Source: an uncultured Lachnospiraceae bacterium (GTDB taxonomy: Bacteria; Bacillota; Clostridia; Lachnospirales; Lachnospiraceae). Taken from it: DNA of 42,830 nt. The position numbers and the translations under genes were made by a program. The DNA lies in assembly GCA_944383605.1 (NCBI GenBank), contig CALWQE010000117.1, forward strand, positions 1 through 42,830, given 5' to 3'. Positions 7,196-42,804 of this stretch are shown piece by piece (within the stretch, counting starts at the first letter, position 1; every line of letters starts with the position of its first letter). The notes beneath the pieces were generated by a model. It was not told where the DNA came from, ran no database searches, and saw only the letters and a list, made by a program, of their open reading frames with translations.

Positions 7196-7221
7196 AACTG
7201 TGGAAAAATGAAAAATAACCG

Positions 7222-9971: not shown

Positions 9972-11906
9972 ATGGAAAGCCGTCCGGATGGATTTCAAAT
10001 CGAAGAAGAACTGAAAAAGCTGCCGGGAAAGCCGGGCGTTTATCTGATGCATGACGCCAGCGATCAGATTATTTATATCGGGAAGGCAGTCAGCCTGAAA
10101 AATCGGGTGCGGCAATATTTTCAGAGCAGCAGGAATAAATCGCCTAAGATTGTGAAAATGGTTTCCCTGATCAGCTGGTTCGAATATATTATTACTGATT
10201 CCGAGCTGGAGGCGCTGGTGCTGGAAAGCAATCTGATTAAGGAATACCGGCCCAAATATAATACCATGCTGAAGGATGACAAAAATTATCCTTATATCAG
10301 GGTGACGCTGGGAGAAGAGTATCCCCGGGTGCTTTTCGCGCATCGAATGACAAAGGACAAGTCAAAATATTACGGCCCCTACACCAGCTCGGAGGCTGTG
10401 AAGAATACGATCCGCCTGCTCCACAAGCTGTACCGGCTGCGCACCTGCAGCCGGAATCTGCCGAAGGAGCAGGGGGTGGGAAGGCCTTGCCTGAATTATT
10501 ATATGAATCAGTGCCAGGCTCCCTGCCAGGGATATATTTCAAAGGAGAAATATGGAAAATCTGTGGCTCAGGCCATGGATTTTCTTAATGGAAAAAGCTT
10601 TGACCGGATCGCAGGAGAGCTGGAGGAGAAGATGAAAAAGGCTGCGGAAGAGATGGACTTTGAGGCTGCTGCCAGCTTCCGTGATCTTCTTTTTGACGTC
10701 CGGAAAATAGCGGAAAAGCAAAAAGTGACGGACAGCGGACAGGAGGACAGAGATATCATTGCCATGGCGGCGGAAGGGCAGGACGCGGTATGCCAGGTGT
10801 TCTTTGTCCGGGAAGGGCGGCTGATCGGGAGAGACCATTTTCATCTGTCTGTGGCTCAGGGAGATTCCCAGGCTCAGGTGCTGACGGATTTTGTGAAGCA
10901 GTTTTACAGCGGCACGCCCTTTGTGCCGAAGGAGCTGTTCCTGCCCTTCGAGATAGAGGAGCAGGAGCTGATTGAGAGCTGGCTTCAGAACCGCCGGGGA
11001 CAGAAGGTGACGATCCGGATTCCAAAAAAAGGCGAGAAGCATAAACTGGTGGAGCTGGCCCAGAAGAATGCGGAAATGATCCTGGGGCAGAATAAGGAGA
11101 AGATGAAGCGGGAAGCGGCCAGAACCACCGGAGCTGTGAAGGAGATCGAAGAATTGCTGGGGCTGCCCTCTGTCATCCGGATAGAGGCGTATGATATTTC
11201 CAATATCAGCGGTTTCGAATCAGTAGGCTCCATGGTAGTGTTTGAACATGGCCGTCCGAAGCAGAATGACTACCGGAAGTTTCGGATCAAGTGGGTACAG
11301 GGGCCAAATGATTACGCTTCTATGGATGAGGTGCTGACGCGCCGGTTCTCCCATGGCCTGGAGGAACATCAGACCTGGCAGGAAAAGGGGATGGCGGCGG
11401 AGGCTTCCGATTACGGCAGCTTTACCCGGTTCCCTGACCTGATTATGATGGACGGAGGGAAGGGGCAGGTGAATATCGCCCAGGAGGCCCTGTCCAGGCT
11501 GGGACTGTCTATTCCGGTATGCGGCATGGTCAAGGATGACCGGCACAGAACCAGAGGGCTGTATTTTAACGGCGCAGAGGTGCCCATCGATGTCCATTCA
11601 GAGGGCTTCCGGCTGATCACCAGGATTCAGGATGAGGCCCACCGCTTTGCCATTGCATACCACCGCAGCCTGCGGGGCAGGGATCAGGTACATTCCCTTC
11701 TGGATGACATTAAGGGAATCGGCCCGGCCAGGCGGAAAGCGCTGATGCGGGCATACGCTTCCCTGGAGGAGATCAGGAAGGCTTCTCTGGAGGAGCTGGC
11801 AGGGATTCCGGGGATGAACGGGGCGGCGGCCAGAAATGTCTGGGAATTTTTCCACCGGCCGGCTGAGGAGGAAGCAAATCCGGCGGCAGACTTTCAAAGT
11901 AGGTAG
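9972..11906 (+). CDS. uvrC: Excinuclease ABC subunit C
   Basis: GIY-YIG N-terminus ([18 protein letters not shown]...LKNRV), a UVR domain ([15 protein letters not shown]), an endonuclease V-like domain and a C-terminal HhH ([11 protein letters not shown]). Confidence 0.93.
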
Positions 11907-25519: not shown

Positions 25520-25575
25520 GGAAATTTCCAAATCGACCTGGATGACGCAGCGGGTGCGTCAAGAAGGAGGAAAAA
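25520..25575 (+). promoter_or_regulatory. Conserved two-hairpin leader upstream of the ABC binding-protein gene (copy 1)
   Basis: GGAAATTTCC-AAATCGACCTGGA-TGACGC(agcgggt)GCGTCA-AGAAGGAGG-N5-ATG. Shares its sequence and architecture with 28772-28827. Confidence 0.6.
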
Positions 25576-26652
25576 ATGGGTAAGAAATTGCTTGTGACAT
25601 TGTTGTCTGCCGCTATGATTATGAGCCTGACCGCTTGCGGCAGCACAGAGGAAGAAACTGCCGGAGCGCAGACGGCTGCTCAGGAGGAAAACAGCGCCGG
25701 CGCCGCAGAGGGAGCGGAAGAATCCGGCGAGGGAACAGAGCTGAGCGGCAGCGTAACCGTATATATGCCCAGCCCCACTGACCTGAACACGGCTTATATC
25801 GAGGGCTTTGAGGCAAAGACAGGGGTTAAGGTGGAGCTGTTTGAAGGCACGACCGGAGAGATCCAGGCGCGTCTGGAGGCTGAGAAGGATAACCCGATTG
25901 CAGATGTAGTCGTACTGGCTTCCTGGTCTGACGGCCTGGCAATGAAGGAAACCGGACAGCTGATGAGTTATCCCGAAGCGGAAAACGCCGATAAGCTGTA
26001 TGACGGATGGGTAGACGAGGACTCGATGCTGTTCGGCACAAGTGCATCCGCTCTGGGCGTCATTTATAATACAACGCTGATTGAAAGCCTGGACGCTGAC
26101 TGGTCCGACCTGGCAGATCCTCAGTATCAGGATATGCTGGCGATTCCCGATCCGGAAAAATCCGGTTCCTGCAAGGATTTTCTGGCAGGCTATATGTGCG
26201 CCACAGATAATGACTGGACTGCCTGGGAAGGAATGGCTGCCAACGGCATGATGGTAGCAGGCGCCAACAAGGCGGCGCTGGAGACGGTTACGACCGGCGA
26301 GAAGGCGATCCTGGTAGCGGGCGTGGACTACAATGCTTATTCCAATATCGAAAAGGGCGAGCCTCTGGCGATCTACTATCCGGCTTCCGGAACAGTGATT
26401 AATCCCAGACCTGCCATGATCCTCAATACCAGCCAGAACGTAGAAAACGCCAAGGCATTTGTGGATTATCTGATGTCAGATGAAGCGCAGCAGATGGTGG
26501 CGGAGGCGTACCTGCTTCCCGGAAGAAGCGACATCACCTGTGAAAACCGTACCAACGTGGCGGATATCCCCACCTTTGAAAATCTGGACTGGAATGTGAT
26601 GATGGACAATTCCGGCGAGATTGCGGCGAAATTAAACGAACTCTGTCAGTAA
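25576..26652 (+). CDS. ABC transporter substrate-binding lipoprotein (Fbp/thiamine/polyamine-type PBP2)
   Basis: Lipobox LTAC after a signal peptide, an acidic linker, and solute-binding family features (VTVYMPSP..., LLPGRS). The ligand cannot be assigned from sequence. Confidence 0.8.
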   Translation: MGKKLLVTLLSAAMIMSLTACGSTEEETAGAQTAAQEENSAGAAEGAEESGEGTELSGSVTVYMPSPTDLNTAYIEGFEAKTGVKVELFEGTTGEIQARLEAEKDNPIADVVVLASWSDGLAMKETGQLMSYPEAENADKLYDGWVDEDSMLFGTSASALGVIYNTTLIESLDADWSDLADPQYQDMLAIPDPEKSGSCKDFLAGYMCATDNDWTAWEGMAANGMMVAGANKAALETVTTGEKAILVAGVDYNAYSNIEKGEPLAIYYPASGTVINPRPAMILNTSQNVENAKAFVDYLMSDEAQQMVAEAYLLPGRSDITCENRTNVADIPTFENLDWNVMMDNSGEIAAKLNELCQ

Positions 26653-28398: not shown

Positions 28399-28472
28399 TG
28401 CAGGGCATTTTTGTGCTTTCACAGGAAACTGCGTTCCCTATGCAACAAAAATGCTCCGCAGGATTCTTTTTT
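28399..28472 (+). terminator. Palindromic repeat element copy 2, probable intrinsic terminator after the ABC permease gene
   Basis: TTGCAGGGCATTTTTGTGCTTTCACAGGAAACTGCGTTCCCTATGCAACAAAAATGCTCCGCAGGATTC-TTTTTT. Same core as copy 1, but the left arm is more degenerate. Confidence 0.6.
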
Positions 28473-28561
28473 ATGACACAGACAGGGCAAAGGGGGAAAA
28501 AGTAACGCAAAAAAGTGGAAAAAACTGTTCGGAAACGTTATAATATTTACAGGAGGTTACA

Positions 28562-28771: not shown

Positions 28772-28827
28772 GGATTCGATCCAAATCGCCTGAATGACGC
28801 GGCATATGCGTCAAGAAGGAGGGAAAT
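28772..28827 (+). promoter_or_regulatory. Conserved two-hairpin leader upstream of the GH13 gene (copy 2)
   Basis: GGATtcgATCC-AAATCGCCTGAA-TGACGC(ggcatat)GCGTCA-AGAAGGAGGG-N5-ATG. Confidence 0.6.
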
Positions 28828-30135
28828 ATGTGGTATGAAGAAAGCGTATTTTATCAGATGAATTTATTTGGCTTCTGCCAGGCGCCGGAACGCAATGACG
28901 GCGTGGTGGTTCACAGGCTTGAGAAGCTGAGCGGGTGGATTCCTCATATGGTGAAGCTGGGCGTTAACGCGGTATATTTCTGCCCGTTCTTTCAGTCGGA
29001 TGCCCATGGATACGATACTAGGGACTTTCTGACGCTGGACTGCCGGCTGGGAACCAATGAGGATTTGGAGAAGGTGTGCGCCCAGCTCCATGAAGCGGGA
29101 ATCCGGGTGGTGTTTGACGGCGTATTCCACCATGTGGGAAGAGGGTTCTGGGCATTTCAGGATGTGCTGAAAAACAGAGAGCATTCTCCCTATAAGGACT
29201 GGTTTTTTATAGACTTTAACGGCGACAGCGGATACCGGGACGGCCTCTGGTACGATGGCTGGGAAGGACATTATGAGCTGGTGAAGCTGAATCTCTATCA
29301 CCCCCAGGTAAAGGAATACCTGTTCCGCTGCATCGGGGAGTGGATGGATCGCTATCAGATCGACGGCCTCCGGCTGGACGTGGCCTATATGGTGGCGCCG
29401 GAGTTCCTGAAGGAGCTGCATCGGTACTGTCTGGAGAAAAACCCGGAATTTTTCCTGCTGGGCGAGATGATTCACGGGGATTATAACCGGCTGGTGAATG
29501 ATGAGATGCTTCACAGCGCCACCAATTATGAGTGCTATAAGGGGCTGTATTCCAGCTTTAACAGTATGAACCTGTTTGAAATCGGCCATTCTTTGCAGCG
29601 CCAGTTTGGCAGCGAGCCATGGTGCCTGTACCGGGGAAAGCATCTGCTGTCCTTTGCCGATAACCATGACGTCACCCGCGTGGCCAGCGAACTGCATAAT
29701 CCGAAGCATCTGCCGCTGCTGTACGCTCTGCTTTTTGCCATGCCCGGCATTCCCTGCGTTTATTACGGGAGCGAATGGGGCGCAAAGGGGGAAAAGAGCC
29801 AGGGAGACAGCGCCCTGCGGCCTTCCTTTGAAGAGCCGGAGTGGAACAGCCTGACAGAGATGATCAGCATGTGCGCCCATGCCCACAGGAACAGCCCGGC
29901 TCTGTGCTATGGGGATTTCCGGATTGCCATGATGACCAACCGGCAGCTGATTATCGAGCGGAAATATGGAAACCAGCAGATCCTGGTGGCAGTCAATGCG
30001 GATGAAAATGATTATATGGCCCATTTTGACGCCCAGGCAGGCCGGGCCAGAGATCTGCTCAGCGGAGAAGTTCATGATTTCGGCGGCGGAAGCCTGCTGC
30101 CCGCTTACAGCGCTTTTTATTGGGAGGTGTTTTAA
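28828..30135 (+). CDS. GH13 alpha-amylase-family glycoside hydrolase (cytoplasmic, no signal peptide)
   Basis: GH13 conserved regions: I VVFDGVFHH, II GLRLDVAYM (nucleophile Asp), III LLGEMIHGD (acid/base Glu), IV FADNHDVTR. Confidence 0.88.
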   Translation: MWYEESVFYQMNLFGFCQAPERNDGVVVHRLEKLSGWIPHMVKLGVNAVYFCPFFQSDAHGYDTRDFLTLDCRLGTNEDLEKVCAQLHEAGIRVVFDGVFHHVGRGFWAFQDVLKNREHSPYKDWFFIDFNGDSGYRDGLWYDGWEGHYELVKLNLYHPQVKEYLFRCIGEWMDRYQIDGLRLDVAYMVAPEFLKELHRYCLEKNPEFFLLGEMIHGDYNRLVNDEMLHSATNYECYKGLYSSFNSMNLFEIGHSLQRQFGSEPWCLYRGKHLLSFADNHDVTRVASELHNPKHLPLLYALLFAMPGIPCVYYGSEWGAKGEKSQGDSALRPSFEEPEWNSLTEMISMCAHAHRNSPALCYGDFRIAMMTNRQLIIERKYGNQQILVAVNADENDYMAHFDAQAGRARDLLSGEVHDFGGGSLLPAYSAFYWEVF

Positions 30136-31160
30136 TGGAGAAGAAAGAAACTTTTATTATGGGCAAGAGAAGCAGCGAGCCCTTTCCCGTGGTGAAACTG
30201 GATTATCCCATATCGCCGAAGGAAAATCTGAAGCTGGTGCTGGATAAGAAAAAACCGGTCTGGGCGCCGAATATGCTGCAGGAGAAGGGGATGACCTTCT
30301 GCCCCCATGACAATGACCGGCCGGCCTTTGGCCAGTCAGGGCTGGACTGGTTCGGAGTCAGCTGGACATATGTGGATGTGGTAGGCGGCCAGATGGTGAC
30401 GCCGGATACGTTTATTCTGAAGGATCCGCTGGAATGGGAAGAGAAAATGATCTTTCCCGACCTGGACGCTATGGATTTTTCGGTGGGCGCGGAAGAGGCA
30501 GAGAAGATGATCGATCCGGATAAGCTGACCTTTTATCTGCTTCAGGACGGCCTGTTTGAGCGGCTGCTGTCTATCTGCAATCCTACGGATGTGCTTTGCT
30601 TCCTGATTGAAGAGCCGGAATCGGCGAAACGGTATTTTAACCGGATGGCGGATTATAAGATCGCCCTGATGGATAAAGTGATCCGGGAATGGGCGCCTTT
30701 TGACGCTTTTATCAACAGCGACGACTGGGGCACCCAGATCAGCACCTTTATCTCTCCGGAAATGTACCGGGAGTATCTGTTTGAGCCAATGAAGCGGATC
30801 ACAGACTTTGCCCATTCCAGGGGAAAATATATTGATTATCATTCCTGCGGCAAAGTAGAGACGTTAGTGCCTCAGATGGTGGAGCTGGGCGCGGATATGT
30901 GGGAGGCCCAGACGATGAATGATCTGGTGAAAATCAAGGGCGAGTACGGAAACCGGCTTCCTCTTCAGATTCCGATGGATCCGATGTATGTGGCCCGGCC
31001 CGGCGTTTCCGATGAGGAAATCCTCGCTTATGTGAGAAATTACCTGGACACTTATGGGCAGGGAGGCGGCCTGATGGTATCCTATGCCGCGCAGAACGCC
31101 CATGTAAATGAAATCATTGTGAAGGAAGTCTTCCGGTACAGCATGGAGATGTACCGGTAA
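30135..31160 (+). CDS. Uroporphyrinogen-decarboxylase (URO-D)/MtaA-like family protein
   Basis: URO-D-like length and C-terminal GGGLMVS motif, and it retains an HxCG motif (YHSCG). The ATG shares one base with the GH13 stop (TAATG) and GGAGG lies upstream. The ORF-track start at 30120 is rejected. Confidence 0.6.
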   Translation: MEKKETFIMGKRSSEPFPVVKLDYPISPKENLKLVLDKKKPVWAPNMLQEKGMTFCPHDNDRPAFGQSGLDWFGVSWTYVDVVGGQMVTPDTFILKDPLEWEEKMIFPDLDAMDFSVGAEEAEKMIDPDKLTFYLLQDGLFERLLSICNPTDVLCFLIEEPESAKRYFNRMADYKIALMDKVIREWAPFDAFINSDDWGTQISTFISPEMYREYLFEPMKRITDFAHSRGKYIDYHSCGKVETLVPQMVELGADMWEAQTMNDLVKIKGEYGNRLPLQIPMDPMYVARPGVSDEEILAYVRNYLDTYGQGGGLMVSYAAQNAHVNEIIVKEVFRYSMEMYR

Positions 31161-31279: not shown

Positions 31280-31897
31280 ATGAAGGTATTAATGATTAAC
31301 GGGAGTCCTTTTAAAGAGGGGAATGTTTATATTGCTCTCCATGAGATGGAGAAAATTTTTCAGGAAGAAGGCATAGAGACAGAACTGCTGCAGATCGGCG
31401 GTCAGCCGGTCCGCAGCTGCGTAGGCTGCATGGGCTGCAGGAAAAAAGGAAAATGCGTTTTTGACGATGGCGTCAATGAGGCGGCGGAAAAATTTGAAGC
31501 CTGCGACGGCCTGGTGGTGGGCAGTCCGGTATATTACGGCGGGGCGAACGCCACCTTGACCGCGTTTCTGACCAGGCTGTTTTACAGCACCTCCTTTGAC
31601 AAAACCATGAAGGTGGGAGCGGCTGTGGCGGCGGCCCGCCGGGGCGGCCTGACAGCCACTTTTGACGAGCTGAATAAGTTTTTTACCATTTCCGGTATGC
31701 CGGTGGCGTCCGGCCAGTACTGGAACGGCATCCATGGCGCCGCGCCGGGGGAGGCTGCCCAGGACGGGGAAGGGCTTCAGATGATGCGGACGCTGGCGAG
31801 AAATATGGCCTTCTTAATGAAGAGCATCGCTTTGGGGAAAGAAAAATATGGGCTGCCGGAGAAGGAGCCGGCGGTAAAAACCAATTTCATCAGATAA
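31280..31897 (+). CDS. Flavodoxin-like / NAD(P)H-dependent FMN reductase-family protein with Cys cluster (iron-sulfur flavoprotein-like)
   Basis: MKVLMINGSP start, Cys motif CVGCMGCRKKGKC, and GSPVYYG, typical of the NADPH-dependent FMN reductase / ISF family. Confidence 0.75.
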   Translation: MKVLMINGSPFKEGNVYIALHEMEKIFQEEGIETELLQIGGQPVRSCVGCMGCRKKGKCVFDDGVNEAAEKFEACDGLVVGSPVYYGGANATLTAFLTRLFYSTSFDKTMKVGAAVAAARRGGLTATFDELNKFFTISGMPVASGQYWNGIHGAAPGEAAQDGEGLQMMRTLARNMAFLMKSIALGKEKYGLPEKEPAVKTNFIR

Positions 31898-31993
31898 GAG
31901 AAGGGCGCAGGCGGCTCCTGAATTGGTAAAGCACCGGGAAAACAAAGCGGTTTACAGGGAAGAACCATAGGAAAGAGCATATTATGAGAAAAA

Positions 31994-32101
31994 CCTGCAT
32001 GCGCCCGGCAGCGGACGCACCACCAGAGATGAAAATCCGGCGGGCGCATTTGGCATCCCTGAATTAACGCCGCCTAATCGGCGGCGGATGTTCAGAGTAA
32101 A
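31994..32101 (+). repeat. 108-nt two-hairpin repeat, unit A1
   Basis: CCTGCATGCGCCCGGCAGC...CCGGCGGGCGCATTTGGCATCCCTGAAT...GCCGCCtaatcGGCGGC...TTCAGAGTAAA. Abuts A2 head-to-tail. Confidence 0.9.
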
Positions 32102-32210
32102 CCTGCATGCGCCCGGCAGCTGACGTACCACCAGAGATGAAAATCTGGCGGGCGCATTTGGCATCCCTAAATGGACGCCGCCTATTCAGCGGCAGATTTT
32201 CAGAGTAAAC
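32102..32210 (+). repeat. 108-nt two-hairpin repeat, unit A2
   Basis: Second tandem unit, exactly 108 nt after A1. Ends 24 nt before the MATE start codon. Confidence 0.9.
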
Positions 32211-32233: not shown

Positions 32234-33610
32234 ATGAAAAAAACTGCGAAGGCGAGCCGGGAGGAGATTTTCAGCAGTATGCCTGTGCCTGCGGCGCTGC
32301 GGACTATGGTGGTCCCTGCGGTGATCAGCCAGCTGATTGTGCTGATTTATAACATGGCAGATACATTTTATGTGGGGCAGACTGGCAATCCTTATATGGT
32401 GGCGGGGACGTCCCTGATTCTTCCGGTATTCAATATTACGCTCTGCCTGTCGGGACTGGCAGGAATCGGCGGCGGAGCCCTGATTTCCAGGCTGCTGGGA
32501 CAGGGGAAAAAAGACGAGGCCAGACGGGTAAGCGCCTTTTCCCTGTATCTGGCGGTTCTGATCGCGGCGCTGTTTTCCGTAGGGATGGCTGTTTTTATGC
32601 GGCCTGTGCTCAGCTTGCTGGGAGCAGGGGAGAACACCTACCAGTATGCCAGGCAGTATGCGTTCTGCGTGATTGTGTTCGGCGGAGTCCCGACAGTTCT
32701 GTCTAATGTTCTGTCCAATCTGATCCGGAGTGTGGGCCGGTCGGGAGAAGCGGGAACCGGTATTGTGCTGGGAGGCGTTCTGAATATTATCCTGGATCCG
32801 ATTTTTATGTTTCTGATTATGCCGGACGGGTATGAGGTGCTGGGCGCAGGCGTGGCCACCTGTCTGTCCAACTGTATCGCCTGCCTGTATTTTGTTGTGG
32901 TGCTGATCCGGATGGGCAGCCAGTCGGTGATTACTTTCAGCGTGAAAAACGGCATGGCCAGCAAAGCCAGCATCCTGGCGGTATTTGGCGTGGGAATCCC
33001 GTCAGCGATCTCCTCGCTCCTGTTTGACCTGGATTATGTCATTATCGATAAGCTGATGGTTTCCTACCATGACCTGGCGCTGGCGGCAATCGGCATTGTG
33101 CTGAAGGTGGAACGGTTCCCGCTGAATGTGGGGATCGGTATCTGTCAGGGTATGATGCCTCTGGTGGCCTACAATTATGCCGCCGGAAAAACAAAACGGA
33201 TGAAGGATACCATACGGCTGGCCCGGGGAGTGGGCATTGGGGTGGCGGTTGTCAGCATTATTTTGTATGAGCTGTTTGCCGTTCAGTTTACCCATCTGTT
33301 TATCGCGGACGCCCAGACGGTGGAGATGGCCTCCAGCTTCCTTCGGATTCGGGTACTGGCTACGCCGCTGATGTTTCTCAGCTTTTTTACTGTGTATTTG
33401 TTCCAGGCCTTTGGAAAGGGCCATGTTTCTCTGGGACTGGGCGTGACCAGGTGGCTGGTATTTAATATCCCCATGCTGTTTATTCTGAACAGAATCTTTG
33501 GGATGTACGGCATTGTATGGTCGCAGGTAACGGCGGATACGCTGACGGTTATCATGTCCTTTATCGTATATTTCCGGTTCGGGCCGGGGAGAGAAAAAAG
33601 TAAGGCATAA
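32234..33610 (+). CDS. MATE-family efflux transporter
   Basis: About 12 TM helices with MATE-like N-terminal motifs (PVPAALRTMVVPAVISQLIVLIYNMADTFYVGQ). I prefer the ATG at 32234 (GAGGAAGAAAAGG upstream), because the ORF-track start at 32171 lies inside repeat unit A2. Confidence 0.85.
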   Translation: MKKTAKASREEIFSSMPVPAALRTMVVPAVISQLIVLIYNMADTFYVGQTGNPYMVAGTSLILPVFNITLCLSGLAGIGGGALISRLLGQGKKDEARRVSAFSLYLAVLIAALFSVGMAVFMRPVLSLLGAGENTYQYARQYAFCVIVFGGVPTVLSNVLSNLIRSVGRSGEAGTGIVLGGVLNIILDPIFMFLIMPDGYEVLGAGVATCLSNCIACLYFVVVLIRMGSQSVITFSVKNGMASKASILAVFGVGIPSAISSLLFDLDYVIIDKLMVSYHDLALAAIGIVLKVERFPLNVGIGICQGMMPLVAYNYAAGKTKRMKDTIRLARGVGIGVAVVSIILYELFAVQFTHLFIADAQTVEMASSFLRIRVLATPLMFLSFFTVYLFQAFGKGHVSLGLGVTRWLVFNIPMLFILNRIFGMYGIVWSQVTADTLTVIMSFIVYFRFGPGREKSKA

Positions 33611-33616: not shown

Positions 33617-34486
33617 TCATTTCTTCTGACAGCTGAAGGCGCAGCCCGCAGGCGTGGCGGCGCATCCCCCGAGGGCTGTTTCGCGCAGCTCCGGGGGCAT
33701 TTTTTTGCCTACTGCATACATGGCCGCCAGCATTTCATCGAAGGGGATGAGCTGGCGTATGCCGCTCAGCGCCATCTCGGCGGCGGTAAGAGCGTTGGCC
33801 GCGCCGGAGGCGTTGCGGGCCTGGCAGGGACATTCCACCAGTCCGCCTACCGGGTCGCAGACCAGCCCCAGTGTATTCATCATAACGATAGAAGCGGCAC
33901 ACAGGCACTGCTGGGGGCTTCCGCCCATCAGTTCTGCGGCAGCGGAGGCTGCCATGGCGGAGGCAACGCCGGTTTCAGCCTGGCAGCCGCCCACGGCGCC
34001 TGCCACGGTAGCGTTGCGCATAGCCAGATAGCCGATGGCGCCCGCGTTAAACAGCGCATTTTCGACCGCGCTGTCAGAGAAACCGTATTCCTCTTTTAAT
34101 GCCAGCAGGACGCCGGGGATAATACCGGAGGAACCGGCGGTGGGAGCGGCCACGATCAGCCCCATGGAGGTATTGACCTCCAGGACGGCGCAGGCGTAGG
34201 TGATGGCCCGGGAGAGGACGCTGCCGCAGATGGATTTTCCGGCTTCCCGCCGCCGGTTCAGCAGATGGGCCTCTCCGCCGATCAGTCCGCCGATCGATTT
34301 CCGGGGCTGGCTGATGGGGGTAAGGGCGGATTCTTTCATAATATTCCAGGCTGTTTTCATTTTTGCGCTGATTTCTTCCGGCCTGGCTTCGCTCAGCTCC
34401 CACTCCCGCTTTTTCATAATTTCGGAAATGGGGCAGTGATATTGCTGGCAGAGCTCCAGAAGCTCCGCTCCGTTTTTAAAGTCCAT
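33617..34486 (-). CDS. sdaAA: L-serine dehydratase, iron-sulfur-dependent, alpha subunit
   Basis: Typical alpha-chain motifs (APTAGSSGIIPG; GAVGGCQAETGVA; CDPVGGLVECPC). Confidence 0.9.
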   Translation of the reverse strand: MDFKNGAELLELCQQYHCPISEIMKKREWELSEARPEEISAKMKTAWNIMKESALTPISQPRKSIGGLIGGEAHLLNRRREAGKSICGSVLSRAITYACAVLEVNTSMGLIVAAPTAGSSGIIPGVLLALKEEYGFSDSAVENALFNAGAIGYLAMRNATVAGAVGGCQAETGVASAMAASAAAELMGGSPQQCLCAASIVMMNTLGLVCDPVGGLVECPCQARNASGAANALTAAEMALSGIRQLIPFDEMLAAMYAVGKKMPPELRETALGGCAATPAGCAFSCQKK

Positions 34487-34562: not shown

Positions 34563-35234
34563 TCAGGCAGGCTGCACCAGCATCACGTCATTTACAAAGG
34601 CGTTTTCCCGTATGCGGCCGGCGATGTTTTCCGGCAGCCTGCCATCAGATTCAACGATACAGTATGCGGTCTGTCCCCGGGCCTCCCGGAAAAGCTTCAT
34701 GAAAGCGATATTGATATTTTGGTCGCTGAGGCATCGGGTGATATGGGCGACTACGCCGGGCCTGTCGTGATGAATGACGATCAGGGTGCTGTATTCGCCG
34801 GAAAAGTCCACGTCGACCTGGTTGATCCTGGTGATCCGCACCTTTCCGCCGCCCAGCGATTCTCCGCGGACGGTCAGGGTTTTCCCCTCCCGTGTGACCA
34901 TATGGATGTCTACTGTGTTGGGATAGATTTCTTCCTCCTCCTGGTTGACCGTAAACTGGAAAGCGAGGCCCTGTTCCCGGGCGATCCGGAAAGAATCAGG
35001 GATGCGGCGGTCATCTGTGGCAAATCCCATAATGCCGCCCAGAAGGGCCAGGTCTGTTCCATGGCCTTTATAGGTGCGGGCGAAGGAACCGTATAGTGTA
35101 AAGGCAACGGACGCCAGCGGGCCGGGAGCCATTTTCTGCGCCAGGAGGGCGATGGAACAGGCGCCGGCGGTATGAGAGCTGGAAGGCCCGATCATGTTGG
35201 GGCCGAGTACGTCAAATACGCTGATAAATGCCAT
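34563..35234 (-). CDS. sdaAB: L-serine dehydratase, iron-sulfur-dependent, beta subunit
   Basis: N-terminus MAFISVFDVLGPNMIGPSSSHTAG plus a C-terminal ACT-like domain. The ATG at 35234 follows AAAGGAG. The ORF-track start at 35258 is rejected. Confidence 0.9.
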   Translation of the reverse strand: MAFISVFDVLGPNMIGPSSSHTAGACSIALLAQKMAPGPLASVAFTLYGSFARTYKGHGTDLALLGGIMGFATDDRRIPDSFRIAREQGLAFQFTVNQEEEEIYPNTVDIHMVTREGKTLTVRGESLGGGKVRITRINQVDVDFSGEYSTLIVIHHDRPGVVAHITRCLSDQNINIAFMKLFREARGQTAYCIVESDGRLPENIAGRIRENAFVNDVMLVQPA

Positions 35235-35283
35235 ATGGCAGCTCCTTTCTTGCGGCAAAGTATGATAACATTTATTATAGCAT

Positions 35284-36319: not shown

Positions 36320-37789
36320 ATGAAGAAACACAAAGGATTAATCGCCGGAGCGGCGGCTGTGCTGCTGCTGTCCCAGGTGCTGCTGGGCGTGTTTGCGTCC
36401 AGAACCCCATCTGAGGTGTCCGTGAAGGAGCCGGACGGGAAAAAGGAACAGGAAGGGGCCGGGGAACTGACAGATACCGCAGGCAGCATACTGGCGGGCA
36501 GGGAGTTTGACCAGCTGGCTGAGGAATATCCGCCCAGCGGCCTGGCAGGGATCTTTCCGGGAGAGGGAAACGGGCTGATTTTTGAGGAAATGGACGCGCA
36601 GACGGCGGAACGGATCGTGGAATCTGTGTTCGCGCCGGCCCGGGAAGAGCCGGAGACGGAAGCGCAGACGGAGCCGGAGACATCGGCCTATGAAAACCGC
36701 GTTGTGATTACAGCCGGGGAATATCTGAATATCCGGGAGGAAAATGATCCGGAATCCAGAGTGATCGGGAAGATTTATCACGGCACATCGGCGGATCTGC
36801 TGGAGCGGGGAGAGGCCTTCAGCAAGATTGTGTCCGGTTCTGTCACCGGCTGGGTATCCAACGATTATATTCTGACCGGAGAAGAGGCGGAAGCCTATGC
36901 CCGGGAGCAGGGTTCCGTAACGATCGCTACGGTGACGGCCACATGGCTGAATGTGCGGGAAAGCCCCAGTACAGAGGCGGATGTGATCGCCACGGTGGAA
37001 GAGGGGCAGTGGTTTATCGTCACGGATCAGGGCGGCGGCTGGGTCAGAATCGACTATACCTCTGGGATCGAGGGTTTCCTGAACGCTGAGTTTGTAACGG
37101 TTAGCCAAAATTACGGACAGGCTGTGTCTATGGATGCAGAGCGGGAACTGATCCAGCTGGCTGAGAGCAGGGCGGCTCTTCAGGAGAGCCGGGAGGAAGA
37201 GGATGAGACGGCGGCTCAGACAGAAACCGCCCGAACCACTGAGGCGGAAACGGAAACAGTACGGACAACAGCTGCTCAGACAGAAGCAGCGAAAACCACT
37301 GAGGCTGAGACAGAAGCAGCGCCGCCTTCTTCGTCCGCGGCTCCTCAGACAACGGCTGCCGCAGAAACGCCGGCAGCCACTGCAGAGCCGGAGCCTGCAG
37401 AAGAGGACGGAGTGGACACATCTGTTTATGACGATCTGAACCTGCTGGCCGCGATGGCGCAGCTGGAGGCGGGCTATCATTATGATTCCTGTCTGGCGGT
37501 GTGCAATGTGATACTGAACCGTACCCGCAGCAGCGGTTATCCCAGTTCCGTCCATGATGTGATCCATCAGTCGGGCCAGTTTGCCGGAACAGGCCCTGGC
37601 GGGACGCTGGAAAAAATTTTGCTGGCCGGGCCCGGGTCTACACCGATGCAGGCGGCGGCAGACGCGCTGGCCGGAGTCAACAATGTAGGGGATTATCTGA
37701 ATTTCTGTTCGGATTCCTATGCGTCTTCTGTGGGGTATCCTTACTCGGAATATGTCGTGATCGGCGGAAACTGCTTTTACAAAAGGTAA
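36320..37789 (+). CDS. Secreted SH3-domain cell-wall hydrolase (SleB/CwlJ Hydrolase_2 C-terminal domain)
   Basis: Signal/TM segment MKKHKGLIAGAAAVLLLSQVLLGVFA; two SH3b-like segments (YLNIREENDPESRVIGKIYHG...; WLNVRESPSTEADVIATV...); a T/E/A-rich linker; a C-terminal hydrolase motif (CNVILNRTRSSGYPSSVHDVIHQSGQF). Confidence 0.8.
   Translation: MKKHKGLIAGAAAVLLLSQVLLGVFASRTPSEVSVKEPDGKKEQEGAGELTDTAGSILAGREFDQLAEEYPPSGLAGIFPGEGNGLIFEEMDAQTAERIVESVFAPAREEPETEAQTEPETSAYENRVVITAGEYLNIREENDPESRVIGKIYHGTSADLLERGEAFSKIVSGSVTGWVSNDYILTGEEAEAYAREQGSVTIATVTATWLNVRESPSTEADVIATVEEGQWFIVTDQGGGWVRIDYTSGIEGFLNAEFVTVSQNYGQAVSMDAERELIQLAESRAALQESREEEDETAAQTETARTTEAETETVRTTAAQTEAAKTTEAETEAAPPSSSAAPQTTAAAETPAATAEPEPAEEDGVDTSVYDDLNLLAAMAQLEAGYHYDSCLAVCNVILNRTRSSGYPSSVHDVIHQSGQFAGTGPGGTLEKILLAGPGSTPMQAAADALAGVNNVGDYLNFCSDSYASSVGYPYSEYVVIGGNCFYKR
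37211..37330 (+). repeat. In-frame 60-nt tandem duplication in the linker of the cell-wall hydrolase
   Basis: AAQTETARTTEAETETVRTT / AAQTEAAKTTEAETEAAPPS. GCTCAGACAGAA recurs at 37214 and 37274. Confidence 0.7.
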
Positions 37790-37881: not shown

Positions 37882-37932
37882 AAATTTACAGAAAAATAAT
37901 GAGATGTATGAATGCTGGAAGGGAGGGATTTT

Positions 37933-39168
37933 ATGCCAGATTATGAAAAGCTGTATGAGGAACGGAAAAACCGGGTAGAGACGGCTGTGGCCAACCAGGA
38001 GCCGGATCGGGTGCCGAATGTATTGCGGGTGGGAACCTATCCGATTCATAAGGCGGGGATTACTGCGGCGGAAAGCATGGTGGATCATGAGCGGGCCTGC
38101 CAGGCGATGCTGGATTTTTATATCCAGTATACCTGTACAGATACTGCCAGCGTTACCAATTTTACGCCGGCGGCCAAGGTACTGGAGGCACTGGACGTGA
38201 AAACCGCCAGATGGCCGGGAGACCCGAAAGGGCTGGACGTGAACAATACCTATCAGTTTGTGGAGTTTCCCACGCTGCTGGATGATGAATACGAAGAATT
38301 TTTTGCCAGCCCGGCAGGCTTTTGGCTGACCAAGCATCTGCCCAGAACCATCGGCTTGCTGGAAGGGGCGGCGGACTTGGATTATGTAGGGCTGATCTGC
38401 GGCGGCGCGCAGCGGCTGCTGGCTTCCCCGGCTTATATTCCGATTTACCGGAAGCTGCTGGAGGCGGCGGAGGAAAACCAGAGGATGTCAGAGATCGGTG
38501 CGAAATATACCCGGAAGGTACGGGAACTGGGCTATTACAGCATTTCCGGCGGCGGGTCGGCGACAGCCTTTGATATGCTGGGCGATACCCTTCGAGGAAC
38601 TTTCGGGATGATGCCGGATCTGATTCTTCAGAGAGAGAATGTAAAGCGGGCTCTGGATATGTTTGTAAAAGTACATATCCGCCAGACTCTGGACGCCTGC
38701 AAGGCTGCCGGGTTAAAATATGGCTGGGTAATGCTCCATAAGGGATTTGACAATTTCATCAGCGACCAGGATTACCGCGAGCTGTATTGGCCGTATCTGC
38801 GCCAGTGGATCGAGGCGCTGGTGGACAATGATATTACGCCTGTGGTATATACGGAGGGAGCTTATAACACCAGGCTTCCTTATCTGAAGGAAGTGCCGAA
38901 AAACAAAGTCATCTATCATTTCGAGGATGTGGATCTGCGGCTGGCGAAAAAAGAGCTGGGAGACGTAGCCTGCCTGATGGGTGGCTTCCCGGTGTATACG
39001 GTAACGTATGGGACGCCGGAGCAGATCGACCAGAAGGTGAAGGAGACCCTGGATATCGTGGCGCCGGGAGGCGGCTATCTGTTTTCTACAGGATATTCCA
39101 TGGGAGACTGCCCGAAAGAAAATATGGAGGCGCTGCTGGAGGCAGTGGAGAAGTACGGCAAATATTAA
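37933..39168 (+). CDS. URO-D (uroporphyrinogen decarboxylase/MtaA-like) family protein, paralogue 1
   Basis: N-terminal NQEPDRVPNV and C-terminal APGGGYLFSTGYS...PKENMEALLEAVEKYG, both typical of URO-D-family proteins. The ATG at 37933 follows GGGAGGG. LHKG occupies the place of the MtaA HxCG motif. Confidence 0.75.
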   Translation: MPDYEKLYEERKNRVETAVANQEPDRVPNVLRVGTYPIHKAGITAAESMVDHERACQAMLDFYIQYTCTDTASVTNFTPAAKVLEALDVKTARWPGDPKGLDVNNTYQFVEFPTLLDDEYEEFFASPAGFWLTKHLPRTIGLLEGAADLDYVGLICGGAQRLLASPAYIPIYRKLLEAAEENQRMSEIGAKYTRKVRELGYYSISGGGSATAFDMLGDTLRGTFGMMPDLILQRENVKRALDMFVKVHIRQTLDACKAAGLKYGWVMLHKGFDNFISDQDYRELYWPYLRQWIEALVDNDITPVVYTEGAYNTRLPYLKEVPKNKVIYHFEDVDLRLAKKELGDVACLMGGFPVYTVTYGTPEQIDQKVKETLDIVAPGGGYLFSTGYSMGDCPKENMEALLEAVEKYGKY

Positions 39169-39250: not shown

Positions 39251-39284
39251 AAGGAGAAGAACCGGGGAGGGCTTCTCCTTTTTT
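39251..39284 (+). terminator. Intrinsic terminator after URO-D paralogue 1
   Basis: AAGGAGAAG-N12-CTTCTCCTT running into TTTTTT. Preceded by a nested GC hairpin at 39181-39227. Confidence 0.75.
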
Positions 39285-39296
39285 AACCGAATCAGA

Positions 39297-39336
39297 GAAG
39301 TCTGCCGCCGGACAGGCGGCATTCATTCAGGGATGC
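39297..39336 (-). repeat. Partial (about 40 nt) inverted copy of the 108-nt repeat (hairpin-2 half)
   Basis: GAAGTCTGCCGCCGGACAGGCGGCATTCATTCAGGGATGC is the reverse complement of the GCATCCCTGAATGAA-GCCGCCTGTCCGGCGGCAGAC part of the unit. The loop orientation (GGACA versus TGTCC) and the flanking CAGGGATGC show that it is inverted. Confidence 0.75.
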
Positions 39337-39486: not shown

Positions 39487-39515
39487 TAGATTCACGCATT
39501 TTGCTTTGATATAAT
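39487..39515 (+). promoter_or_regulatory. Putative promoter P2 (extended -10) upstream of repeat unit B and URO-D paralogues 2-3
   Basis: TAGATT-17 nt-TATAAT with TGa directly upstream (TGATATAAT), preceded by GTACT-N9. Confidence 0.5.
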
Positions 39516-39531
39516 ATATTTGCAGAGCAAA

Positions 39532-39634
39532 CCTGCATGCGCCTGGCAGCCAACGCATCACCAAAGCTGAAAATCTGGCGGGCGCATGGGGCGTTGAACG
39601 CTGCCTATCCGGCGGCAGACTTTCAAAATGAAAC
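39532..39634 (+). repeat. 108-nt-family repeat, unit B (single, most diverged)
   Basis: Same architecture as A1/A2. Begins about 17 nt after the TATAAT at 39510-39515 and ends 60 nt before the paralogue-2 ATG. Confidence 0.85.
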
Positions 39635-39694
39635 GCGCGGAAAAGGGAGATGAGGGCCCGGCTCCGCGTTCATGTGAAAAGGAGGGGGTTAACG

Positions 39695-40951
39695 ATGACC
39701 AATCAGGAAAAGTATCAGGAACGGTTAAAACGGATTAACGACGCCATAGCGCTGAAGGAACCGGATTCGATCCCGTTCATTCCGATCGTGCAGTGCTATC
39801 CTTTTTTGCAGGCGGGATATACCATGGCGGATATTCTGTATGATCGGGATCTGAGTAAAACAAGGAAGAGCCTGTTCCAGTATCTGGATACCTATCAGCC
39901 TGACGCCATGTTCGGCCACGGGTATGTATATGCGGGCCAGGGCCCGATCCTGGAAAAGGGAATGCCGAAAACGATGCGGTGGGCCGGTCAGCCGGGAGCG
40001 GCGATTGATAAAAATTCCATCCATCAGTTTATCGAGTTCCCGGTACTGGAAGACGATGAATTTGAACAGTTTTTCACAGACCGGAGCGGCTGGGTCATGA
40101 ATGTGGGCATGCCCAGGACAAACGGCCTGCTGGAGCCGCTGGCAGGGCTGAAGGTGCGGGATATGGGGGTTTACAACAGCTATTCTCCTGTGGCTGCGGC
40201 TGTCAGCACGCCGGAATTTAAGAAAATGATGGAAACCCTGTGGGAAATTAATGAGATGAACGAGGCGCTGACGCCCCTGCTGAGGCAGCTGGATGCGGAT
40301 ATTGAGGCTTATGGCTATCCGGTGCTGGCTACCGGCGGCGCAGGCGTTCCCTATGATGGCTACAGCGATTTTCTGAGGGGCACGCTGGATGGGCTGGCGG
40401 ATCTTTATGAGAGGCCGGATGAGGTGATGGCATATTGTAAGGAGCAGCTGGAGGGCGTCCTGGAGATGATCCGGATGCAGGGAAAGATCATGCCCGGCAA
40501 GCATGTATTTATGGCCCTTCATAAGGGCATGGACGGCTTCATGAGCGATGAGCATTACCGCACCTTCTACTGGAACCACCTTCAGAGGATTATCAACGAG
40601 ATTATTGACAATGGCATGGTGCCTTATATTTACACAGAGGGCCGGTATGACAGCCGTCTGGAATGCCTGAAGGAAGTTCCCGCCGGCAAGGTGGTATACC
40701 ACTTTGAAGAGGTGGATATGGCGCAGGCAAAGAAGATACTGGGCGACGTGGCCTGCATCTCCGGCGGATTTCCGGTATATCTGCTGGATTATGGCACGAA
40801 AGAGCAGGTGGTGGATGAGGCGAAGCGCCTGATTGATATCTGCGGCGCGGGAGGCGGCTTCATTTTTGAGACGTCCTGCGGCATGGATCTGGCAAAGCCG
40901 GAAAATGTAGAGGCGCTGATGGATACGGTGCGTACTTACGGGAAGAAATAA
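39695..40951 (+). CDS. URO-D family protein, paralogue 2 (divergent)
   Basis: Same architecture as paralogues 1 and 3 (KEPDSIPFIP ... ALHKGMDGF ... GAGGGFIFETSCGM...PENVEALMDTVRTYG). The ATG at 39695 follows AAGGAGGGGG. The ORF-track start at 39650 is rejected. Confidence 0.75.
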   Translation: MTNQEKYQERLKRINDAIALKEPDSIPFIPIVQCYPFLQAGYTMADILYDRDLSKTRKSLFQYLDTYQPDAMFGHGYVYAGQGPILEKGMPKTMRWAGQPGAAIDKNSIHQFIEFPVLEDDEFEQFFTDRSGWVMNVGMPRTNGLLEPLAGLKVRDMGVYNSYSPVAAAVSTPEFKKMMETLWEINEMNEALTPLLRQLDADIEAYGYPVLATGGAGVPYDGYSDFLRGTLDGLADLYERPDEVMAYCKEQLEGVLEMIRMQGKIMPGKHVFMALHKGMDGFMSDEHYRTFYWNHLQRIINEIIDNGMVPYIYTEGRYDSRLECLKEVPAGKVVYHFEEVDMAQAKKILGDVACISGGFPVYLLDYGTKEQVVDEAKRLIDICGAGGGFIFETSCGMDLAKPENVEALMDTVRTYGKK

Positions 40952-41039: not shown

Positions 41040-42278
41040 ATGATGATTGATTATGGGAAAAGATATGAGGAACGGAAAAAACGGGTAGAAACAGCGGCGG
41101 CGAACCAGCAGCCGGACCGGGTGCCCAATGTGCTGATGGTAGGAACCTATCCGATTCATAAGGCTGGCATCACCGCGGCGGAAAGTATGATCGACCATGA
41201 GCGGGCATGCCAGGCGATGCTGGATTTTTATACCCAGTATTCTTACACGGATACTGCCAATATCAGTAGCTTTATTCCGCCGGCAAAGGTGCTGGAGGCG
41301 CTGGATGTGAAGACCGCCAGATGGCCGGGAGATCCGAAGGGGCTGGATGTGAACAATACCTATCAGTTTGTGGAATTTCCCACGCTGCTGGATGATGAGT
41401 ATGAGGAATTTTTCCAGAATCCGGCAGGCTTCTGGCTGACCAAGCATCTGCCCAGAACCATCGGTCTGCTGGAAGGCGCTGCAGATCTGGATTATGTGGC
41501 GCTGATATGCGGCGGCGCCCAGCAGCTGCTGTCGTCTCCCGCGAATATTCCGATCTATCGGAAGCTGCTGGAGGCTGCGGAGGAAAACCAGCGGATGATG
41601 GATATTATAGGAGAGTACAGCCAGAAGCTGAACGCCCTGGGATATTACAGCATTTCCGGCGGCGGCTCTGCCACAGCCTTCGATATGCTGGGAGATACGC
41701 TGCGGGGTACCTTCGGCATGATGCCGGATCTGGTGCTGGAGCGGGATAATGTAAAGCGGGCTCTGGATATGTTCGTGAAGATCCATATTCGCCAGACTCT
41801 GGATTTCTGCCAGTCTACCGGGTCGAAATACGGATGGGTAATGCTGCATAAAGGGTTTGACAATTTTATCAGCGACAAAGATTATGCGGAGCTGTACTGG
41901 CCGTATCTGCGCCAGTGGATCGAGGCGCTGATCGATCATAATATTACGCCGGTGGTTTATACCGAAGGTTCTTATAATACCCGTCTGCCTTACCTGAAGG
42001 AAGTACCGAAGAATAAGGTGATTTACCACTTCGAGGAAGTGGATCTCCAGCTGGCGAAGAAGGAGCTGGGGGATGTGGCCTGCCTGATGGGCGGCTTCCC
42101 GGCTTATACAGTCACCTATGGCACGCCGGAGCAGATCGATGAAAAGGTGAAGGAGACGCTGGATATTATGGCGCCGGGCGGCGGCTATCTGTTTACGACA
42201 GGATATTCTCTGGAGGACTGCCCGAAGGAAAATATGGAAGCGCTGCTGGAGGCAGTGGAGAAATACGGAAAATATTAA
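41040..42278 (+). CDS. URO-D family protein, paralogue 3 (near-duplicate of paralogue 1)
   Basis: Collinear with the 37933-39168 product, with most residues identical by eye. RBS GAGGGAGGG. No promoter is visible in the 88-nt gap after paralogue 2, so probably co-transcribed with it. Confidence 0.75.
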   Translation: MMIDYGKRYEERKKRVETAAANQQPDRVPNVLMVGTYPIHKAGITAAESMIDHERACQAMLDFYTQYSYTDTANISSFIPPAKVLEALDVKTARWPGDPKGLDVNNTYQFVEFPTLLDDEYEEFFQNPAGFWLTKHLPRTIGLLEGAADLDYVALICGGAQQLLSSPANIPIYRKLLEAAEENQRMMDIIGEYSQKLNALGYYSISGGGSATAFDMLGDTLRGTFGMMPDLVLERDNVKRALDMFVKIHIRQTLDFCQSTGSKYGWVMLHKGFDNFISDKDYAELYWPYLRQWIEALIDHNITPVVYTEGSYNTRLPYLKEVPKNKVIYHFEEVDLQLAKKELGDVACLMGGFPAYTVTYGTPEQIDEKVKETLDIMAPGGGYLFTTGYSLEDCPKENMEALLEAVEKYGKY

Positions 42279-42438: not shown

Positions 42439-42467
42439 TAGGATGTGCAGACAGGTTTTGATATAAG
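42439..42467 (+). promoter_or_regulatory. Putative promoter P3 abutting repeat unit C1
   Basis: TAGGAT-17 nt-TATAAG with a TTTTGATATAA context shared with P2. Confidence 0.35.
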
Positions 42468-42575
42468 CCTGCATGCGCCCGGCAGCCAACGCATTACCAG
42501 AGATGAAAAACTGGCGGGCGCATTTGGCGTCCCTGAATAAATGCCGCCTGTCCGGCGGCGGAATTTCAGAGTAAG
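42468..42575 (+). repeat. 108-nt two-hairpin repeat, unit C1
   Basis: Starts immediately after the TATAAG at 42462-42467. Abuts C2 head-to-tail. Confidence 0.9.
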
Positions 42576-42683
42576 CCTGCATGCGCCCGGCAGCCAGCGC
42601 ATTGCTAGAGGTGAAAAACTGGCGGGCGCATTTGGCATCCCTGAATGAAAGCCGCCTGTCCGGCGGCAGATGTTCAGAGTAAA
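42576..42683 (+). repeat. 108-nt two-hairpin repeat, unit C2
   Basis: Second tandem unit, exactly 108 nt after C1. Confidence 0.9.
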
Positions 42684-42775: not shown

Positions 42776-42804
42776 TTGACATTTATCCTGAGATTTCATA
42801 CAAT
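42776..42804 (+). promoter_or_regulatory. Near-consensus sigma-A promoter at the window end
   Basis: TTGACA-17 nt-TACAAT in an AT-rich tract, with the direct repeat ATTCAACAATA (two copies) upstream. Confidence 0.6.

Follow-up and report, generated by a model that had tools for sequence, protein, structure and literature searches.

A 108-nt two-hairpin repeat found after AAR-TAA-A motifs, probably a non-autonomous interspersed element of gut Lachnospiraceae

Results

The 42,830-nt contig CALWQE010000117.1 of an uncultured Lachnospiraceae bacterium (GenBank assembly GCA_944383605.1), hereafter called the window, carries on its plus strand five copies of a repeat unit of about 108 nt in which two hairpins can form. 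Units A1 (31994..32101) and A2 (32102..32210) stand head-to-tail and occupy the gap between a FMN_red gene (31280-31897, +) and a MatE gene (32234-33610, +), directly upstream of the latter. Unit B (39532..39634), which measures 101-103 nt and whose linker between the two hairpins is shortened by a 7-nt deletion, precedes a URO-D gene (39650-40951, +). Units C1 (42468..42575) and C2 (42576..42683), again head-to-tail, come after a ~20-bp hairpin downstream of the third and last URO-D gene of the cluster (41040-42278, +). All these window genes were identified by Pfam. The similarity among the five units is far beyond chance: their alignment has a mean column identity of 89%, their nhmmer E-values range from 1e-27 to 1e-34 and their covariance-model scores from 85 to 125 bits (A1 125.5, A2 114.8, B 85.3, C1 118.7 and C2 111 bits). 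Tandem Repeats Finder (TRF) delimited the two tandem loci at 31991-32210 and 42464-42682, with a period of 108, 2.0 copies, 90-91% matches and no indels. The five units, their coordinates and the 108-nt tandem period had been reported by a first-pass annotation, and are borne out by sequence reading and by TRF.

Each unit is laid out as a 13-bp G+C-rich stem around a variable loop, followed by a short G+C hairpin and by the tail TTTnAAAGTAAA. Stem 1 pairs ATGCGCCCGGCAG with CTGGCGGGCGCAT and contains a G-G mismatch that is constant across copies (in A1 its arms are at 31999-32011 and 32037-32049). Hairpin 2 reads GCCGCC-N5-GGCGGC (arms at 32069-32074 and 32080-32085 in A1). These elements, and four exceptions to them in A1, A2 and B, are as first described. 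When single units were folded on the plus strand, most of them did better than shuffled sequences (z from -1.4 to -3.7); A1 and C2, the only units also folded on the minus strand, fold at least as well there.

Loci of the same family were found by an exact scan for the 19-mer CCTGCATGCGCCYGGCAGC in one genome per species, which returned 91 stretches, and the units were then located by nhmmer with the five window copies as query. This analysis led to 68 matches, 55 of them near full length, distributed over 52 arrays of 1-5 units; these are minimum copy numbers, given that an exact 19-mer was needed to find the loci. True 19-mer matches come from ~14 Lachnospiraceae species genomes; those in high-G+C Proteobacteria and Actinobacteria are due to chance and were not retained as family members. 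The carriers include mouse-gut MGBC genomes (several of them labelled 'Hungatella sp.'), Bacterium D16-56, Lacrimispora sp. 210928-DFI.3.58 and Candidatus Paralachnospira sangeri. At least 10 unit loci are present in MGBC140257, and scaffold 30 of D16-56 carries arrays of 3, 2 and 5 units inside 16 kb; L068 is among the loci whose arrays reach five units. No unit copies were found in viral contigs and plasmids. Rfam gave no match at the gathering threshold for the whole window and 15 other loci (~25 units), and at E <= 10 the segment 31850-32300 returned only noise (ACAT, HIV_GSL3, NPPA-AS1 and PYLIS_2, all <=17 bits). A full-text literature search with a 15-mer of the unit retrieved no papers, and a keyword search nothing relevant besides type III toxin-antitoxin repeats, which do not fit. 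At first reading the unit had not been recognised as belonging to a known class, and the family is apparently undescribed so far.

Units are on average 83% identical within genomes and 78% identical between genomes, with dispersed copies inside D16-56 reaching 94-96%. The closest relative of a unit is usually its neighbour in the array (A1/A2 91%, C1/C2 90%, units 1-3 of L068 96-98%). At five or more loci we observed ~35-nt 'mini' forms in which the 5' 19-mer is joined straight to the 3' tail (CCTGCATGCGCCCGGCAGC directly followed by GGACTTTATAGTAA), as in L012 (~880-914, minus strand) and similarly in L029, L003 (from 6653), L043, L061 and L082. They could have arisen by deletion between the internal direct repeats GGC(A/G)GCGGAC.

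The placement of the arrays relative to genes follows a clear pattern. Between co-directional genes 36 arrays are in the sense orientation and 4 are antisense (two-sided binomial p ~2e-7; two of the 36 are orthologous duplicates), while four arrays lie between divergent genes and four between convergent genes. The gene upstream is co-oriented with the array in 42/52 cases, and in 13 arrays the gap between its stop codon and the first unit is <=2 nt. The next start codon is usually found 5-60 nt past the unit, often with a GGAGG-like motif directly 3' of the unit. According to the first-pass annotation, many copies in both orientations, with no bias towards 5' leaders and no covariation, would mark an ordinary REP-like repeat. 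The expected mix of orientations was not observed, since 36 of the 40 arrays are in sense; as for position, it is sites behind stop codons that are favored, and not 5' leaders.

The 5' flank of the arrays is conserved from about -12 to -1 with the sequence TTTCAAAGTAAA, the same as the 3' end of the unit itself, whereas the 3' flank is random. In a profile of 42 arrays, A is found at -2 in 42/42, at -1 in 38/42, at -3 in 35/42 and at -6 in 32/42, with T at -4 and G at -5 in 29/42 each, giving the consensus A-G-T-A-A-A. The corresponding junctions in the window are GAAAAA at array A (31988..31993, +), AGCAAA at B (39526-39531) and TATAAG at C (42462-42467). In nine of the 42 distinct flanks the upstream gene, as called, stops at the junction TAA; such a flank is genuine coding sequence, and it still reads A-A-R-T-A-A-A. 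Flanks match the end of their own unit at 7.12 of 12 positions and the ends of other units at 6.98 (permutation p = 0.19), and variant flanks such as AATAAA and AGCAAA have no counterpart at the right end. Because the match to the own end is no better and the variants are not mirrored, the AAGTAAA-like motif is a preferred landing motif rather than a duplicated target. Past this junction motif of 7-12 nt the flanks of different loci have nothing in common. Finally, no terminal inverted repeats (TIRs) were found: the ends CCTGCATG... and ...AGTAAA are non-complementary, and the inverted repeats detected are internal. This, together with the head-to-tail arrangement of the arrays, bears out the initial statement that the units lack both TIRs and spacers.

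Several loci give evidence of insertion and of copy-number change. Contig L092 encodes an identical FMN_red protein, its flanks are two substitutions away from those of the window, and at the position of A1-A2 it carries just one unit, which is identical to A1, A2 being absent. An assembly collapse is an unlikely explanation, since the longest run common to A1 and A2 is far below the k-mer of 87 used for the L092 assembly. In D16-56, an array of five units separates the stop codon of an MFS_2 permease gene (...ACG TAA A followed by CCTGC...) from the ribosome-binding site of a TM2-domain gene. Orthologues of this gene pair in L176 and L177 (82% and 85% protein identity) keep the gene order, and their gaps of 60 nt and 44 nt contain no unit, as checked with methods that included the covariance model; in L177 the MFS stop codon stands in TAAAAAG. 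Contig L175 (ENA contig BATT21-1_SAMEA7076567_METAG-scaffold_2505), with a 100% identical MFS protein, ends 50 nt into unit 1 (3475-3524). As this break falls within the first unit of an array that has five units in the isolate, the repeat fragments short-read assemblies. In the cobT gene (DBI_PRT) of MGBC140257, one 108-nt unit is inserted in frame (L002:4877-4984) and the open reading frame (ORF; L002:4461-5681) stays open. This CobT aligns with the solved Salmonella CobT in two blocks, residues 5-121 with 3-120 and residues 180-394 with 127-341, and the 36 residues encoded by the unit fall within the resulting extra segment of ~52 residues, between Salmonella residues 120 and 127.

These data bear directly on the reading of the repeat as a non-mobile minisatellite, whose loci would derive from ancient segment duplications and whose copy number would vary by local slippage only. 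The close relatedness of neighbours in an array (up to 96-98% in L068) and the differences in copy number between strains would be expected from it. Against it stand the restriction of similarity between loci to the short junction motif, the 94-96% identity of dispersed copies within one genome, the empty orthologous sites and the precise 108-nt in-frame insertion in cobT, and we regard it as very unlikely. In the window, A1-A2, B and C1-C2 are probably three such insertions rather than one regulator common to the MatE and URO-D genes.

Comparison of A1 with its counterpart in another strain, L093 (1411-1462, corresponding to 31994-32045 of the window), showed flanks that are identical over ~130 nt, yet A1 differs at three positions in or around the loop. 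One of these changes brings back an A-U pairing that the window copy has lost to a mismatch, a pattern that points to more rapid change, or to gene conversion, within the units than in their flanks.

Partial copies are also present in the window. A 40-nt inverted copy (39297..39336, minus strand) contains the hairpin-2 half only (model positions 60-99; nhmmer E = 1e-7) and is also evident as the inverted-repeat pairs I1, I2, I4 and I7. It lies directly after a terminator-like hairpin and T-run (39264-39288) downstream of the URO-D gene at 37912-39168 (+). The first-pass annotation had placed all copies in the plus orientation, which holds for the five full copies and not for this fragment. A solo 3'-end fragment, CCGGCGGCAGACTTTCAAAGTAG (11878..11901, +; 24 nt, model positions 83-106, nhmmer E = 0.012), corresponds to repeat family D4 of the window repeat analysis. 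The 644-aa ORF at 9972-11906 receives its last eight codons and its stop codon (...NPAADFQSR*) from the unit 3'-end fragment (11878-11906). Its Lacrimispora orthologue (L009) has a different C-terminal end, followed by two full units, and the intergenic alignment of the two is too diverged to place the junction exactly. In contrast, a candidate degenerate fragment proposed at 31903..31924 (+), which by eye resembles unit positions 49-71, was detected neither by nhmmer at E <= 50 nor by cmsearch at E <= 1 and is unconfirmed.

We then analyzed how the fold is conserved. In 52 units, 90.5% of the cells of the two-hairpin structure are paired, versus 33-45% when the partner is slid, and the stems are nearly invariant across the family whereas the loops vary. 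Changes on both sides were seen in seven pairs, mostly in one subfamily; in hairpin 2, seven copies from two genomes carry compensated changes at two adjacent pairs (GC to AU and CG to UA). On the sense strand we counted 70 A.C against 51 G.U cells overall, and 44 against 22 in stem 1 and hairpin 2. Because A.C mismatches exceed G.U pairs, there is no mark of the sense RNA as the selected fold, and the hairpins could equally be read as those of single-stranded DNA. Terminator-like matches are confined to the minus strand of the units.

The first-pass annotation had concluded that the units contain no conserved ORF. This conclusion stands, though it missed an ATG at unit positions 6-8 in 53/55 units, in frame with the preceding TAA; the frame that this ATG opens often runs to the TAA of the unit. 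The frame from this ATG is open to <=5 codons from the end in ~80% of units and has premature stops in ~20%; from ATG to TAA it is intact in A2, C1 and C2 and in 13/21 units of exactly 108 nt. Unit lengths range from 106 to 110 nt with indels that are not multiples of three, shifting the frame while the nucleotides are kept. Variability by codon position is 0.136, 0.147 and 0.104, so the third position is the lowest and there is no codon periodicity. The frame-shifting lengths and the low third-position variability indicate that the ATG...TAA frame is not a conserved coding sequence. That each unit encodes a functional peptide of ~33 residues (MRPAA...) is accordingly extremely improbable: the intact frames in the window and among the 108-nt units speak for it, while the length changes, the premature stops and the third-position pattern speak against it.

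The genes next to the arrays belong to no particular class. Among 39 genes downstream of arrays we identified 60 Pfam families, and among 39 genes upstream 67, none of which is enriched or common to more than two genes on either side. Typical flanks are adjacent cistrons of housekeeping operons, such as PGK > TIM, TsaE > TsaD-family (PF00814) protein and NusB > XseA > polyprenyl synthase; further pairs are BrxB > BrxC, phosphate propanoyltransferase > acetate kinase, CobQ > CobT > CobU and UvrC > HPr kinase. A metagenome scan with the MatE protein of the window recovered 80 loci at 46-81% identity. None of the 80 carries a unit by nhmmer, nor do any of the 43 of these that were searched with the covariance model, and their upstream contexts vary. 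As 80 MatE-relative loci are without a unit and differ upstream, a conserved MatE leader is ruled out.

One of the two readings originally offered for the repeat was a cis-acting leader, a tandem riboswitch or protein-binding attenuator that would co-regulate the MatE exporter and the URO-D paralogues. Its placement behind promoters holds for one array of the three. Unit B starts 8-10 nt downstream of the likely transcript start from an extended -10 element, TGaTATAAT (39507-39515), and is therefore at the 5' end of a likely transcript. Upstream of A1-A2 neither a promoter nor a terminator was detected. C1-C2 are past the URO-D operon and upstream of an A+T-rich stretch that contains a strong promoter (42776-42804), and, judged by this position, are not in a leader. 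The position of B, that of A1-A2 directly upstream of MatE, and the better-than-shuffled folding of most units favor a leader. They are outweighed by the absence of the unit from the MatE-relative loci, the unrelated neighbours of 39 arrays, arrays of up to five units whose number changes at the strain level, and the location of most copies after stop codons between housekeeping cistrons rather than in 5' leaders. Neither an Rfam match nor a sense-strand RNA signature in the non-canonical pairs was found, and we consider such a leader highly improbable. The second reading, a selfish intergenic repeat of the REP, BIME, BOX or RUP type, is supported by dozens of copies in ~14 genomes next to unrelated genes, and also by the copy-number variation, the empty orthologous sites and the in-frame copy in cobT.

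A broader role in RNA has to be weighed as well, namely that the unit, which may still have spread as a repeat, is a domesticated general module between cistrons, kept because its two stem-loops act in the mRNA. Possible roles are an exonuclease block, a processing site, a means of tuning the ratio of upstream to downstream product, or a ribosome relay, in which ribosomes would pass from the upstream stop to the ATG at unit positions 6-8 and then to the unit TAA just before the next ribosome-binding site. In favor of such a module are the sense orientation in 36/40 co-directional pairs, the typical order of stop codon, unit, ribosome-binding site and next start codon, stems that are kept while loops vary, the compensation in hairpin 2, the occupancy of some sites across genera, and the ATG of 53/55 units with a frame that in ~80% stays open to within five codons of the end. 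However, A.C exceeds G.U (44 against 22) in the main helices on the sense strand, the indels are not multiples of three with no third-position variability, orthologous operons lack the unit, copy number differs between strains, and one copy sits inside the cobT coding sequence. We therefore hold the domesticated module to be unlikely.

The remaining features of the window concern its other genes and repeats. Pfam also identified an Alpha-amylase gene (28828-30135, +), a URO-D gene (30120-31160, +), the serine dehydratase alpha and beta chains (33617-34486 and 34563-35258, both -) and an SH3/cell-wall hydrolase gene (36320-37789, +). There are four URO-D paralogues within 12 kb (30120-31160, 37912-39168, 39650-40951 and 41040-42278), and those at 37912-39168 and 41040-42278 share 81% identity over their first 300 nt. 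Rather than true uroporphyrinogen decarboxylases, the four may be enzymes of the corrinoid-dependent methyltransferase type. Exact-protein look-ups for three of the URO-D genes, made for strain variants at these loci, returned no record. The hairpin between the last URO-D gene and C1 (42358-42402; ATATCCCGCGGAAATCAGA...TCTGATTTCCGCGGGATAT) is nearly perfect over ~20 bp and has a T-run on the minus-strand side only. A second repeat of 75 nt (7122-7196 and 28399-28473, 87% identical), each copy of which is a long palindrome (inverted pair I3), may represent a bidirectional terminator common to both sites or a further small repeat family. A 42-nt segment present at 25537-25578 and 28789-28830 (83% identical) consists of CCTGRATGACGC-loop-GCGTCA, then AGAAGGAGG and ATG, and thus forms a small hairpin immediately 5' of the ribosome-binding sites of two different genes; its opening bases, CCTGAATGA, resemble the linker of the 108-nt unit. 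In-frame coding tandem repeats are found at 9844-9912 (36-nt period, ORF 7807-9915) and at 37208-37319 (30-nt period, in the SH3/cell-wall hydrolase ORF).

Discussion

In this study we describe a family of 108-nt units that are probably a lineage-specific, non-autonomous interspersed repeat of a gut Lachnospiraceae clade, landing after AAR-TAA-A, and not a gene-specific regulator. The family, though new, represents a kind of element that is already known rather than a new class of regulatory RNA. In the model that we propose, new copies would land immediately 3' of AAR-TAA-A, often the TAA stop of the upstream gene plus one A, and nearly always in the sense orientation relative to the gene. 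Since the unit ends in the landing motif, it recreates its own landing site, and this recreated site, together with local tandem duplication, would give rise to the spacer-less head-to-tail arrays of 1-5 units. An inserted unit would be transcribed within the operon mRNA, placing two stable stem-loops between cistrons; any influence on expression would be generic rather than ligand-specific. Antisense copies would probably be removed by selection because the antisense strand looks terminator-like.

As to how the units move, a single-strand mobilisation of the HUH/Y1 type, like that of IS200/IS605 or of REP-associated tyrosine transposases (RAYTs; REP, repetitive extragenic palindrome), would fit best, given that the units have subterminal hairpins and a fixed short target but neither TIRs nor a duplicated target. 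Guide pairing in the style of IS608 was not evident by eye: the bases 5' of hairpin 2 vary, and the CCTGC 5' of stem 1 does not pair with TAAA. Because no transposase, parent element or guide pairing was found, this mechanism is put forward tentatively. A parent transposon was also sought among genes bracketed by two units, which proved to be xseA, an alpha-glucosidase gene and the gene of an unannotated protein.

Several points weigh against the interpretation as a mobile interspersed repeat. All 19-mer matches in Lachnospiraceae fall in units or in deleted forms of them, none in a longer element having the same ends, and no transposase (RAYTs included) or recombinase was found among the genes near the densest loci, which encode a helix-turn-helix regulator, a protein kinase, a GNAT acetyltransferase, an AraC regulator and a TM2 protein. 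At ~78-83% average identity, the copies give no hint of a recent burst. Different genera have units at some of the same sites, as for L026/L047 and for the two units of L009 versus the window fragment at 11878-11901. This occupancy and the compensation in hairpin 2 could mean that the unit is kept for a function, and the sense bias could reflect a role at the RNA level instead of counter-selection of antisense copies. The search itself has limits, as an exact 19-mer misses divergent copies, and the genes near the arrays were called by a custom script, a codon-usage scorer that reproduces the Pfam-supported genes of the window. Taken together, the identities, the relatedness within arrays and the sites shared across genera indicate that the family is old, has spread within genomes and has arrays that grow and shrink locally. 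It is possible, though rather doubtful, that the family reflects an undescribed Lachnospiraceae mobilisation system placing a 108-nt two-hairpin cassette in sense right behind AAR-TAA-A stops, free of inverted repeats and target duplication (HUH/Y1-like, a recombinase acting on a 7-nt core, or other), and/or that the cassette is kept as an inter-cistron RNA module setting relative expression in operons.

The units share features with several known repeats; they behave like REPs and MIRUs, yet have the defining traits of neither. REPs are single palindromes of 20-40 nt with GTAG/CGTC tags, located mostly 3' of coding regions, and their GTAG often provides the stop codon TAG (PMC3733652). Like REPs and bacterial interspersed mosaic elements (BIMEs), the 108-nt units have many chromosomal copies and G+C-rich hairpins, lie mostly downstream of coding regions, between genes that are unidirectional or convergent, occur in some cases inside genes and form head-to-tail clusters. 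The terminal tag overlaps the flanking stop in both, GTAG giving TAG in REPs and GTAA giving TAA here. The units differ in their length of 108 nt, their two unlike hairpins and their tag GTAA(A); moreover, REPs are commonly paired in inverted orientation whereas the units are almost always direct and sense. Mycobacterial interspersed repetitive units (MIRUs), in part as Supply et al. 1997/2000 reportedly described them, are also dispersed units (tens to ~100 nt) in variable direct tandem arrays between cistrons, in the orientation of the genes and with strain-variable copy number, and they too are apparently mobile and placed with little disturbance of neighbour expression. MIRUs insert at start codons, and their internal ORF is coupled to the downstream start codon (PMC12548453), at -4 nt; our units, in which no ORF is conserved, lie against the upstream stop, and they also differ in their strong two-hairpin structure, in the phylum of their hosts and in the lack of any sequence relationship.

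The palindrome-associated transposable elements (PATEs) derived from IS200/IS605 (HUH/Y1) resemble the units in lacking TIRs and target duplication, in having two unlike subterminal hairpins and in inserting 3' of a fixed short target in one orientation; the hairpin mismatch would distinguish the DNA strands. Unlike for PATEs, no tnpA or parent element was found and guide pairing is not evident, and the loop of the left hairpin, at 25-29 nt, is unusually large. Miniature inverted-repeat transposable elements (MITEs) of Firmicutes and other bacteria, such as the repeat unit of pneumococcus (RUP, 107 nt), Correia, enterobacterial repetitive intergenic consensus (ERIC) and bcr1 elements, have TIRs, duplicate a short target (TA, TTTAT) and occur in both orientations. 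The 108-nt units are like them in size (~100-150 nt), intergenic location, co-transcription, occasional in-frame copies in genes and stable folds, and unlike them in lacking TIRs and target duplication and in their sense bias. Features of MITE-type repeats are also reviewed elsewhere (PMC3184786). With BOX elements, the units have in common that they are Firmicute intergenic repeats with a stable secondary structure and a reiterated module of variable number. BOX elements of Streptococcus pneumoniae are modular (boxA, n x boxB, boxC) and reiterate only boxB, whereas here the whole 108-nt unit is reiterated, and there is no sequence similarity. Two other systems were excluded. Type III toxin-antitoxin RNAs consist of ~36-45-nt tandem repeats followed by a terminator and the toxin gene at a single locus (PMC3401426), which is incompatible with 108-nt units at many loci upstream of unrelated genes. 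Integron attC sites follow cassette ORFs within one array and have at their two ends the core sites RYYYAAC / GTTRRRY, which are absent from the consensus, and our copies lie in housekeeping operons and in spacer-less tandems.

This work removes a false riboswitch lead, in that tandem, well-folding units located 5' of transporter genes can be selfish repeats. Near-identical strains differ in copy number, so the arrays could be used as variable number tandem repeat (VNTR) markers for typing strains of these gut bacteria, and the assembly breaks at the repeats bear on the quality of metagenome-assembled genomes. The rules of the family are unusually strict, with the AAGTAAA junction, the sense orientation, the placement at stop codons and arrays of 1-5 units. 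Units within operons and in cobT are natural test cases for the effects of stem-loops on polycistronic expression and for protein tolerance.

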